From a virus (taxonomy: Duplodnaviria > Heunggongvirae > Uroviricota > Caudoviricetes), in the IMG/VR virus record IMGVR_UViG_2617270976_000012, positions 1 through 48,151 of that record: a stretch of 48,151 nucleotides of DNA. One strand, 5' to 3'. The translations under genes and the position numbers were made by a program. Under the pieces are notes generated by a model that searched no databases, was not told the DNA's origin, and was given only the letters and a program-made list of their open reading frames with translations. Below are positions 17,896 to 19,839 of this stretch, in pieces; the stretch's first letter is position 1, and the number at the start of each line of letters is the position of its first letter.

Positions 17896-19839
17896 ATGGC
17901 ATTTAAACACTATGACGTGGTCAGGGCGGCGTCGCCGTCAGACCTTGCGGAGCGACTGACACAAAAACTGAAGGAAGGCTGGCAGCCGTTTGGCAGTCCT
18001 GTGGCTATCACGCCTTATACACTGATGCAGGCCATTGCCGCAGAGGGTGATGTGACCACGCCTGTGGTTGTGCCCGACACAGGGGCTGGTGGCTCTCCGG
18101 GAGTGGCTACCACTGAACCGGAGTATTACTACGTTATTCCCCTGGCCGGGCAGTCGAACGGTATGGCCTATGGTGAGGGGCTTCCTCTGCCGGAGACCTA
18201 TGATCGCCCTGACTCCCGTATTAAGCAGCTGGCCCGTCGCAGCACTGTGACGCCGGGTGGTGATACCTGTGCATACAATGACGTTATTCCGGCAGACCAC
18301 TGTCTGCATGATGTTCAGGACATGAGCGCACTTAACCATCCTCATGCAGACCTGAGTAAGGGCCAGTACGGGACTGTCGGTCAGGGGCTGCATATTGCCA
18401 AAAAACTTCTGCCTTATATCCCGCAGAATGCCGGGATTCTTCTGGTGCCCTGTTGCCGTGGCGGGTCTGGTTTAACCGTGGGTAATGACGGCACGTTCAG
18501 CGAAACGTCTGGCGCATCGGCAAATTCAGCCCGCTGGGGAGTGGGTAAACCGCTGTATCAGGATTTTCTCTTCCGTACAAAAGCGGCGCTGTCGAAGAAC
18601 CCGAAAAACAGGCTTCTGGCCGTGGTATGGATGCAGGGGGAAAATGATCTTGCGGACGGCAGTCAGCAGCACAGCGGCCTGTTTACCACTATGGTGCAGC
18701 AGTTCAGGGCTGATATGGCTGCATATTCTGCACAGTGTGTTGGCGGAAGTGCTGGCTCGGTGCCGTGGATTTGTGGTGACACCACGTATTACTGGAAGAA
18801 TCTTAACGCCGATAAATATGAGGCGGTATATGGCGGTTACAAGGGCAGGGAAGCACAGAATATTTTCTTTGTACCGTTCCTGACGGATGAGAATGGACAG
18901 AGCACGCCAACGAATGCTCCGGCGGAAGACCCGGATATTGTGGCTGTCGGGTATTACGGTGCAGCATCCCGAACCCAGGGCAGTTTTGTTTCGACACAGC
19001 GTGACAGCCATTTCAGCTCATGGGCACGCAGGGGCGTCATTTCAGACCGTCTGGCCTCAGCTATTATGCTCCATGCAGGGCGCACGGCTGAATTGATGCG
19101 CGGGCAGACCGTGACACCACCGGATGAGAAGCCGTCACCTGATACACCATCAAAACCGTCCACGCCACCCGCAGACACCACGACGATGAGTACGCTATTT
19201 GCTTACCGGGCATCTGAGTCTGAAGGACGGTTGACACCACAGGGTTGGGCTGCTGGAGGTGGCAAGGCTCAAATCGTGGATGATGCCGGAGCCAGCGGGG
19301 GTAAGGCAATGAAACTGACCAAGGAAACAGGAAGAGCCCCCTGGTACCTTGAGCATGATGCTGGTAATGGTGCGGACCTGCTGGGTAAAGGTGGTCTTGT
19401 CAGTTGTCGTTTTAAACTCGATGGCGCGCTTACGGCTAATCAGTACGCACTGGCGCTGTACTGGCCGGTTTCTTCATTGCCTCAGGGTGTCACACTGGAA
19501 GGTAATGCCGGTAACAATCTGCTGGCGTCGTTTTACGTACAGAGCGATGCCACAGACCTCAACGTGATGTACCACAAGGGTAACGCTGACCAGAACACGA
19601 AGCTGGGGTCATTCGGCGCATTTGACAACGAATGGCATACGCTGGGTTTCCGTTTTGCCGGTAATAACAGCATTCAGGTGACGCCGGTGATTGATGGTCA
19701 GGATGGTGCACCGTTCATGCTGTCGCAGTCTCCGGTAGGTTCTTTTGCGGCAGACAAATTACGTGTAACGGATATCACAAAAGCGGCGACGTATACGGTG
19801 CTGATTGAAAGTATAACAGTGGAAGTGAATAACCCGTAA
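17896..19839 (+). CDS. nanS-p: Prophage sialate O-acetylesterase NanS-p-like (DUF1737 N-terminus + SGNH-type esterase)
   Basis: AGGGGAGG RBS; N-terminal MAFKHYDVVRAASPSDLAERL...; GQSN motif (IPLAGQSNG); C-terminal lectin-like region; position between tRNAs and lysis genes. Confidence 0.7.
   Translation: MAFKHYDVVRAASPSDLAERLTQKLKEGWQPFGSPVAITPYTLMQAIAAEGDVTTPVVVPDTGAGGSPGVATTEPEYYYVIPLAGQSNGMAYGEGLPLPETYDRPDSRIKQLARRSTVTPGGDTCAYNDVIPADHCLHDVQDMSALNHPHADLSKGQYGTVGQGLHIAKKLLPYIPQNAGILLVPCCRGGSGLTVGNDGTFSETSGASANSARWGVGKPLYQDFLFRTKAALSKNPKNRLLAVVWMQGENDLADGSQQHSGLFTTMVQQFRADMAAYSAQCVGGSAGSVPWICGDTTYYWKNLNADKYEAVYGGYKGREAQNIFFVPFLTDENGQSTPTNAPAEDPDIVAVGYYGAASRTQGSFVSTQRDSHFSSWARRGVISDRLASAIMLHAGRTAELMRGQTVTPPDEKPSPDTPSKPSTPPADTTTMSTLFAYRASESEGRLTPQGWAAGGGKAQIVDDAGASGGKAMKLTKETGRAPWYLEHDAGNGADLLGKGGLVSCRFKLDGALTANQYALALYWPVSSLPQGVTLEGNAGNNLLASFYVQSDATDLNVMYHKGNADQNTKLGSFGAFDNEWHTLGFRFAGNNSIQVTPVIDGQDGAPFMLSQSPVGSFAADKLRVTDITKAATYTVLIESITVEVNNP

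Follow-up and report, generated by a model that had tools for sequence, protein, structure and literature searches.

A NanS-p sialate O-acetylesterase gene in a lambdoid prophage without stx, and a DUF1737 domain that varies with head class

Whom does a sialate O-acetylesterase serve when its gene is carried by a temperate phage, the bacterium that harbours the prophage or the phage particle itself? The gene that raises this question, nanS-p, lies in a 48,151-nucleotide stretch of viral DNA (positions 1 to 48,151 of IMG/VR record IMGVR_UViG_2617270976_000012, hereafter the window), which is a lambdoid Escherichia coli prophage without stx. The analysis indicates that this gene very probably encodes an enzyme of the NanS-p family, a prophage-borne sialate 9-O-acetylesterase. 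The gene itself is an already catalogued member of this characterised family and stands in its usual location. The part worth keeping is a pattern across related prophages: variants of the N-terminal DUF1737 domain track the class of phage head, the enzyme and lectin-like modules recombine freely, and variants without an esterase exist.

Counted from its first TTG, the open reading frame (ORF) of nanS-p spans 17866-19839 on the plus strand. The ATG at 17896 is the start used by RefSeq in identical copies of the gene, and the N-terminus M(A/T/S)(F/I)KHYD is common to all aligned homologues, each with the same start residue. The gene and its parts are as follows.

17885-17891, plus strand: strong Shine-Dalgarno sequence GGGGAGG, read from the sequence, 4 nucleotides 5' of the nanS-p ATG.
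17896-19839, plus strand: nanS-p coding sequence, 647 amino acids and a stop codon that ends at 19839; ATG start, protein beginning MAFKHYDV.
17896-18060, plus strand: DUF1737 domain of type A, residues 1-55; Pfam PF08410 match at residues 3-50 (E=1.1e-15).
18061-18123, plus strand: linker 1, residues 56-76, hypervariable and rich in Pro, Gly and Thr.
18124-19080, plus strand: NanS-type (group II SGNH) esterase core, residues 77-395; match to Protein Data Bank (PDB) entry 3PT5.
19081-19188, plus strand: linker 2, residues 396-431, hypervariable and rich in Pro, Ser and Thr.
19189-19836, plus strand: C-terminal DUF6645 jelly-roll, lectin-like domain, residues 432-647; matches to PDB entry 6YP6 and Pfam PF20350.

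A reading of this stretch from its sequence alone, hereafter the sequence-only reading, had described a 647-residue protein made of a DUF1737-like N-terminus, a GQSN-type SGNH core and a long, lectin-like C-terminal extension. Matches in Pfam, PHROG and the PDB bear this out in every part and agree with the published NanS-p architecture. Specifically, the Pfam matches to DUF1737, SASA (residues 149-278, E=7e-12) and DUF6645 (residues 496-613, E=7e-69) all exceed their gathering scores, and the PHROG family phrog_143, which carries no functional label, spans the full length of the protein (E=0). The structure of NanS (YjhS) from E. coli O157:H7 (3PT5) matches residues 71-391 with E=1.9e-113, and 6YP6, deposited as 'NanS-p' and representing the jelly roll of the NanS-p of phage phi24B, matches residues 432-646 with E=1.3e-98. 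These domain and structure matches lie far beyond chance, and the two linkers between the three domains are flexible. A scan of the NCBIfam models gave no match, which means only that no curated NCBI model exists. The folds of both large domains were assigned through these sequence matches to solved structures; a full-length AlphaFold2 model built with 16 close homologues (81-100% identical to the query) was discarded at a mean predicted local distance difference test score (pLDDT) of 36.6 and a predicted template-modelling score (pTM) of 0.29.

The catalytic residues point in the same direction. The core is 54% identical to chromosomal NanS over 322 aligned positions, and its GQSN motif stands at residues 85-88 within LAGQSN. 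In the HMMER alignment to 3PT5, Ser87 (codon 18154-18156) and His372 (codon 19009-19011) align with the catalytic Ser19 and His301 of NanS. Alignment of 13 diverse homologues shows Ser87, Gln86, Asn88, Arg369 and His372 to be invariant, so that the SGNH catalytic residues expected of such an esterase are present and kept. In NanS, catalysis relies on Ser19 and His301 without the usual Asp, and a Gly together with Gln18 makes up the oxyanion hole (PMC9063846). Gln86 is the counterpart of this Gln18, and Arg369, not Asp, occupies the position three residues before the histidine, which gives a NanS-style Ser-His dyad without an acid residue.

Two more canonical interpretations of the active site were considered and rejected. 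The histidine block reads RDSH here and RASH, RSSH or RPTH in homologues, which might suggest a restored DxxH acid; however, Asp370 sits two residues before the histidine, not three, at a position that varies between D, A, K and P. Similarly, Asn250 was rejected as the canonical block III oxyanion residue: its position is occupied by N, F, A or K among close homologues, and NanS uses Gln18. Since both positions vary freely among close homologues, neither was given mechanistic weight.

The protein belongs to a family that is well documented. An identical protein is public in RefSeq as WP_032184487.1, a 'SASA family carbohydrate esterase', and cluster P0001, 100% identical to the NanS-p of the window, occurs on 150 contigs. 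Among 5426 complete E. coli genomes, 1113 have megablast matches to nanS-p, with a median of 6 matching places in each; in 339 of them a match covers at least 80% of the gene, and the allele of the window itself appears at 99% identity or more in only 4 records. In a phage collection, tblastn matched nanS-p in 351 records, most of them from Stx-converting phages, and identity never exceeded 80%. Every NanS-p allele tested from strains EDL933 and O104:H4 is an active esterase on 5-N-acetyl-9-O-acetylneuraminic acid (Neu5,9Ac2) and mucin O-glycans, and these alleles supported growth on Neu5,9Ac2 (review PMC8065619). The proposal that such prophage esterases let their hosts use O-acetylated sialic acids agrees with what has been published on NanS-p enzymes (PMC8065619).

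These data are compatible with a model in which the lysogenic population benefits. NanS-p would be made only upon prophage induction, through antitermination by Q, and would accumulate in the cytoplasm until phage lysis frees it; its N-terminus has no hydrophobic stretch and no signal-peptide-like sequence. Outside the cell, the enzyme would remove 9-O-acetyl groups from Neu5,9Ac2 on mucin glycans, and its C-terminal domain, as a carbohydrate-binding module, would help to target it. The deacetylated sialic acid could then become usable by surviving sibling lysogens, and a fraction of the enzyme may be tethered to capsids via DUF1737. In Stx2a strains, nanS-p expression rises by 1-2.4 log on induction with mitomycin C, and the literature on relatives describes co-expression of NanS-p with the late genes (including PMC8065619 and Pascal et al. 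2023). Some observations weigh against this model. The NanS-p of the window is 65% identical to the studied proteins of phages 933W and phi24B, its block III reads GEND (Asn250) where NanS, 933W and phi24B have GEFD with a Phe, and carbohydrate binding by the C-terminal domain has no experimental demonstration for any NanS-p (review PMC8065619).

A second explanation is compatible with the same enzymology and differs in the beneficiary and the site of action. According to it, NanS-p is first of all a virion component: DUF1737 would dock, probably as a hexamer, on the hexons of the capsid and display the esterase and lectin-like domains. The phage would then benefit in O-acetylated sialomucus, by sticking to or moving through mucus in the manner of a receptor-destroying enzyme, and any nourishment of the host would be incidental. 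We consider this possible, if on balance rather doubtful. Its starting point is a 2026 bioRxiv preprint on phi24B, in which gp84, the NanS-p orthologue vb_24B_21, is among the most intense virion bands. In that work, the gp84 DUF1737 domain forms a hexamer that sits as a plug in the central hexons of the T=9 capsid, where Tyr42 serves as the anchoring 'tooth'; the remainder of gp84 is clipped off on storage, and SSP motifs are tentatively tied to this processing.

To what extent this picture carries over to other lambdoid phages can be gauged from how DUF1737 varies. By local tblastn, 19 loci were typed for DUF1737, esterase core, C-terminal domain and head class. P0134, a further relative, was also run and left uncounted, its DUF1737 matching none of the three reference types. 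The distribution is as follows.

DUF1737 type A, 13 loci: 7 with a head built on a fusion of S78 protease and major capsid protein (MCP), 5 with a lambda gpE-type head, 1 (vB_EcoS_phi330) a siphovirus by name only.
DUF1737 type B, 5 loci: 3 with a podovirus head, 1 assigned to Sepvirinae by taxonomy, 1 with its head module deleted by insertion sequences (IS).
DUF1737 type C, 1 locus: a fourth head class.

The DUF1737 type thus follows head class in 17 of the 19 typed loci, the other two being phi330, classed by name only, and the headless type B locus; the 12 typed heads of type A all belong to long-tailed phages. A Fisher test of 13/0 against 0/4 gives p=4e-4, a value that is only indicative because the loci are phylogenetically non-independent. 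The types of esterase core and C-terminal domain, in turn, reshuffle independently of the DUF1737 type. Five loci (Stx2a_1447, Stx1_8100, Stx2c_2409, Stx1a_10314 and phi330) combine type A with a core and C-terminal domain of the phi24B type, and conversely P0112, which lies next to stx2 and a P22-type portal, joins type B to a window-like core and C-terminal domain. The headless locus, Stx2a_JNE130812, was considered as a counterexample, being type B with no head match; with its head module replaced by IS transposases, it proved uninformative.

As a separate observation, positions 16789-22237 of this locus (L027) hold IS transposases and a fragmented tape-measure gene in place of the packaging and head module 3' of the lysis genes. 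Deposited as a 'complete' Stx2a phage, Stx2a_JNE130812 looks like a defective chimeric prophage.

The position of the differences is also suggestive. Between the type A domain of the window and the type B domain of phi24B, 30 of 33 residues are identical over residues 1-33 and only 6 of 26 over residues 34-56, so that the divergence is concentrated in the segment that forms the anchor loop in phi24B. Against a shared mode of docking, the window protein carries a 3-residue deletion exactly at G41-Y42-G43 of phi24B and thereby lacks the insertion with Tyr42; a Tyr at position 41 follows the gap. SSP occurs nowhere in the window protein, whereas phi24B has the motif at residues 57 and 414. The head of the window, furthermore, gave no match to the phi24B MCP (Phage_capsid_3) or to the P22-type portal of phi24B at E<=1e-5 and more than 40% query coverage, and capsid binding is known only for type B on a T=9 podovirus capsid, from the preprint alone.

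A further difficulty is that prophages with the identical nanS-p allele fall into two head classes, between which local tblastn gave no cross-match: the S78 protease-MCP fusion head in the window and in NMBU-W12E19, and a lambda B/C/D/E-type head (gpE and gpD) in S1-CAM-01-A and 23CRST047. Either one anchor must fit both heads or the link between type and head reflects phage population structure and not function. The observed pattern is what co-adaptation of anchor and capsid would produce, and limited gene flow between podovirus and siphovirus lambdoid phages could produce it too; that type A serves two MCP families is left unexplained.

Relatives that lack the enzyme speak to the same issue. 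P0122, a protein of 294 residues, consists of DUF1737, a short linker and DUF6645 without SASA, and it occupies the same slot as nanS-p in the order Q, TerB, DUF3927, the gene itself and holin. It is found in at least three assemblies (L012, positions 8001-8885; L013; L014), in prophages that share the Q type and the S78-MCP head of the window. P0134 combines two DUF1737-like repeats with DUF6645 and a further segment at the C-terminus; its gene is flanked by lysis genes on one side and terminase genes on the other, in a prophage whose head is of the lambda type. In both proteins the pair of anchor and lectin-like module is kept without an esterase, an arrangement that fits a modular design of putative anchor, optional payload and binding module. 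Together with the distribution of DUF1737 types over head classes, these esterase-less variants lend moderate, indirect support to extending the capsid decoration of phi24B to long-tailed lambdoid phages of the kind represented by the window. The fuller generalization, in which DUF1737 is a head-class-matched capsid anchor across lambdoid phages, type A docks on both S78-MCP and lambda gpE hexons and the esterase is an exchangeable payload between an anchor and a lectin-like domain that are both conserved, is put forward tentatively and may well prove wrong.

A different arrangement was seen in another element (L022), where positions 10001-14029 hold two NanS-p-like genes (629 and 659 residues), divergent and in convergent orientation, beside an integrase. 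Further genes of this element code for a DNA polymerase III alpha subunit, for a DnaB-like helicase and for CobT-like proteins, which is atypical for a lambdoid late region.

The sequence-only reading had further regarded the C-terminal region as the variable part of the protein and as a possible determinant of substrate specificity. Identity to the window protein, segment by segment, gives a more differentiated picture.

phi24B: DUF1737 64%, linker 1 19%, core 71%, linker 2 28%, C-terminal domain 70%.
PhiR12_5: DUF1737 98%, linker 1 52%, core 67%, linker 2 22%, C-terminal domain 45%.
Phage 434: DUF1737 78%, linker 1 14%, core 73%, linker 2 31%, C-terminal domain 34%.

In comparison with phi24B and 933W, and among the alleles of Stx phages, conservation of the C-terminal domain matches that of the core (70% against 71%). 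In the deep comparisons with phage 434 and PhiR12_5 it does diverge beyond the core (34-45% against 67-73%), and Pascal et al. 2023 likewise describe it as more divergent than the core. The most variable segments, however, are the two linkers and residues 34-56 of DUF1737: linker 1 shares 14-52% identity with phage copies, while the domains on either side of it reach 64-100%, and linker 2 shares 22-31%. The claim of a variable C-terminus holds only in part: it fits the distant relatives, and variation in the linkers and in the second half of DUF1737 is equal or greater.

The idea of a specificity switch fared less well. The C-terminal domain of NanS-p has been crystallised, and its fold is a lectin-like jelly roll in which four aromatic residues are the proposed sugar ligands. 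The residues of the proposed sugar site of vb_24B_21 (Y510, Y515, Y540 and F611) correspond to Y517, Y522, Y547 and F617 of the window protein. They are identical in all close homologues, and in domains that are only 34-45% identical the sole replacements are by Phe or Leu. With these aromatic residues kept or conservatively replaced, there is no positive sign of a specificity switch, and the conserved patch argues for a conserved binding function. In an exhaustive HMMER scan, the C-terminal domain by itself matched only 37 clusters among 1.84 billion representatives. Six of the ten longer matches also carry SASA and/or DUF1737 according to Pfam; in the other four Pfam recognises no additional domain, and truncated esterase cores account for at least two of them. 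The domain is narrow in its occurrence and linked to phages.

A third explanation, which we regard as unlikely, holds that bacterial surface glycans, for instance O-acetylated O-antigen, capsule or colanic acid, take the place of host sialic acid as substrate of the esterase, which would thereby aid access to the receptor or block superinfection. The review PMC8065619 raises this as an open possibility, and the virion association reported for phi24B would bring the enzyme to the cell surface while the phage adsorbs. Against it, the core is closely related to NanS, whose mapped substrate is 9-O-acetyl sialic acid, the NanS-p enzymes that were tested have Neu5,9Ac2 and mucin O-glycans as substrates (PMC8065619), and the literature examined contains no activity on a bacterial glycan.

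The genomic neighbourhood places nanS-p within a late operon. The best-matching complete genomes annotate the same block of genes, and Pfam scans of the window's own ORFs agree with them.

14267-15088, plus strand: late antiterminator Q gene at the head of the late operon, 273 amino acids; Pfam Antiterm PF03589 (E=5e-51); 'antitermination protein' in locus L001.
15646-16359, plus strand: ORF with an AraC-type helix-turn-helix (HTH), 237 amino acids, between Q and the tRNA genes, inside the late transcription unit.
16388-16637, plus strand: three phage tRNA genes (CAU, Arg-UCG and Arg-UCU) 3' of Q, found with ARAGORN and Rfam.
16736-17409, plus strand: TerB-family and DUF3927 ORFs, from Pfam and the RefSeq annotation of identical genes, in the slot of stx in Stx phages.
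17475-17684, plus strand: gene for a small RNA (sRNA) of the STnc100 family, a full-length match to Rfam RF02076 at 145.6 bits against a gathering score of 47, within the 486-nucleotide gap before nanS-p.
17775-17798, plus strand: strong intrinsic-terminator-like hairpin with a 10-base-pair stem, 7 GC pairs and a T-run, about 100 nucleotides 5' of nanS-p.
19988-22656, plus strand: downstream late genes by Pfam, namely DUF1378, DUF826, a P21-type holin (20553-20768), DUF1327, lysozyme (21168-21701) and Rz (22183-22656).
26890-28827, plus strand: fusion of S78 protease and MCP, 645 amino acids; phrog_617, major head protein (E=1.5e-260); the partner that NanS-p would bind if, and only if, it decorates the capsid.

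No promoter-like site was found between the hairpin at 17775-17798 and the nanS-p ATG, a layout that fits read-through from the late promoter. The putative terminator 5' of the gene suggests that nanS-p may depend on antiterminated late transcription. The gene directly adjoins the lysis cassette, and the terminase, head and tail genes lie 3' of this cassette. In loci L007 and L026, stx occupies the position of TerB and DUF3927 in an otherwise identical gene order; with this pair in the stx slot, the window is a non-toxigenic version of the well-known Q-stx-nanS-p-S arrangement. A 2026 preprint describes a synteny of PasD/STnc100-type sRNA, sialic acid esterase, PasA/PasC and holin, and relates STnc100 to PasD.

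Several further observations concern the same region. The TerB/DUF3927 pair also stands before nanS-p in NMBU-W12E19, where the allele is identical, and before the variant without an esterase in L012; in 23CRST047 an IraM-like gene takes its place. The AraC-family HTH ORF, which has a promoter-like site (10/12 match) 5' of it at 15583-15610, may encode a prophage-borne regulator of host genes. In L001, the RefSeq annotation of the gap 5' of nanS-p shows only a minus-strand pseudogene fragment. On the 3' side, a second Rz-like spanin match (phrog_1267, E=6e-43) lies at 23234-23575 on the plus strand, about 600 nucleotides beyond the Rz gene that matches Pfam Phage_lysis, and within a low-GC stretch (23001-24000, 45% GC). 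In the tail region, a 378-residue ORF at 38547-39683 (plus strand) stands between the tape-measure and tail-tip genes. Its only match is phrog_410, of unknown function, and with 43-45% GC against 55-60% in the neighbouring tail genes it looks like a moron.

The portal region of the window consists of two overlapping plus-strand ORFs (29039-30403 and 30400-31785), both of which match one portal PHROG of 859 positions; the second contains a 162-nucleotide tandem repeat (30625-31319, 4.3 copies, 95% matches). The equivalent in NMBU-W12E19 is labelled 'frameshifted' by RefSeq, and Stx2a_1447 has the same two-ORF layout with one repeat unit fewer. The split portal was considered as a sign of a dead prophage and rejected on account of this shared layout, which may reflect conservation of this arrangement or programmed frameshifting, not damage.

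That nanS-p is a decaying passenger without current function in a defective prophage is very improbable: many E. coli prophages are indeed defective, IS-disrupted and split nanS-p copies exist and one sampled relative has lost its head module, but the ORF here is intact, of full family length and preceded by its strong ribosome-binding site, no catalytic or sugar-site residue has been lost, about 150 contigs and prophages of unrelated backbone carry an identical sequence, and the surrounding prophage has complete lysis, head and tail modules.

Taken as a gene call, the result adds nothing new, as the exact protein is in RefSeq and the family has been characterised both biochemically and structurally (NanS core, NanS-p C-terminal domain). 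Its relevance lies in the setting. NanS-p copies give E. coli lysogens access to the O-acetylated sialic acids of gut mucus, and this copy shows that non-Stx prophages in commensal and environmental strains carry the trait too, and not enterohaemorrhagic E. coli (EHEC) alone. Should capsid decoration apply to the head type of the window, these prophages would release enzyme-decorated particles, with a bearing on the persistence of temperate phages in mucus, and DUF1737 would constitute a portable display tag for phage capsids.

Among known systems, the closest are the NanS-p proteins of 933W (Z1466/933Wp42) and phi24B (vb_24B_21/gp84). They share with the window protein the domain order DUF1737, NanS-type SGNH core and DUF6645, the position between the Q/stx slot and the holin, and the catalytic Ser and His as well as the aromatic residues. 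They differ in their DUF1737 type, in both linkers, which are unrelated in sequence, and in their SSP motifs and GEFD block. The phage of the window, in turn, lacks stx and has an S78-MCP head of the long-tailed type, not a T=9 podovirus head. NanS itself (YjhS, 3PT5) has a homologous group II SGNH core and shares the Ser-His dyad, the Gln of GQSN and the lack of a catalytic Asp; unlike NanS-p, it is a single-domain protein (the 3PT5 chain has 337 residues) without DUF1737 or DUF6645, and its place is in the chromosomal system for sialic acid catabolism, not in a phage late operon. The esterases of gut and oral Bacteroidota, namely EstA, P. vulgatus SAE and T. forsythia NanS catalyse the same reaction on the 9-O-acetyl sialic acids of mucin (PMC9063846). 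P. vulgatus SAE differs in its type I SGNH fold, full Ser-His-Asp triad and Asn oxyanion residue, and is a dimeric cellular enzyme without phage context (PMC9063846).

With regard to display on particles, the phi24B preprint draws a comparison with Hoc of T4-like phages, a dispensable protein at the centres of hexons whose glycan-binding domains may hold the phage in mucus. Hoc binds as a monomer and has Ig-like domains and no enzyme, whereas gp84 of phi24B combines a hexameric anchor with an esterase.

A more distant parallel is found in the haemagglutinin-esterases of influenza C virus, toroviruses and betacoronaviruses, which, like NanS-p, are viral proteins that combine an SGNH sialate O-acetylesterase with a lectin-type domain, and which are non-homologous to it. 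The likeness extends to display on the virion only if the phi24B result generalises; if the anchor function is real, virions bearing a sialate O-acetylesterase and a lectin-like module would be the phage counterpart of haemagglutinin-esterase. The two designs nevertheless differ in construction: haemagglutinin-esterase is a membrane glycoprotein of type I SGNH fold with an inserted lectin domain, whereas NanS-p combines a type II fold with a linker-borne lectin-like domain at its C-terminus and a small, putatively capsid-docking domain.

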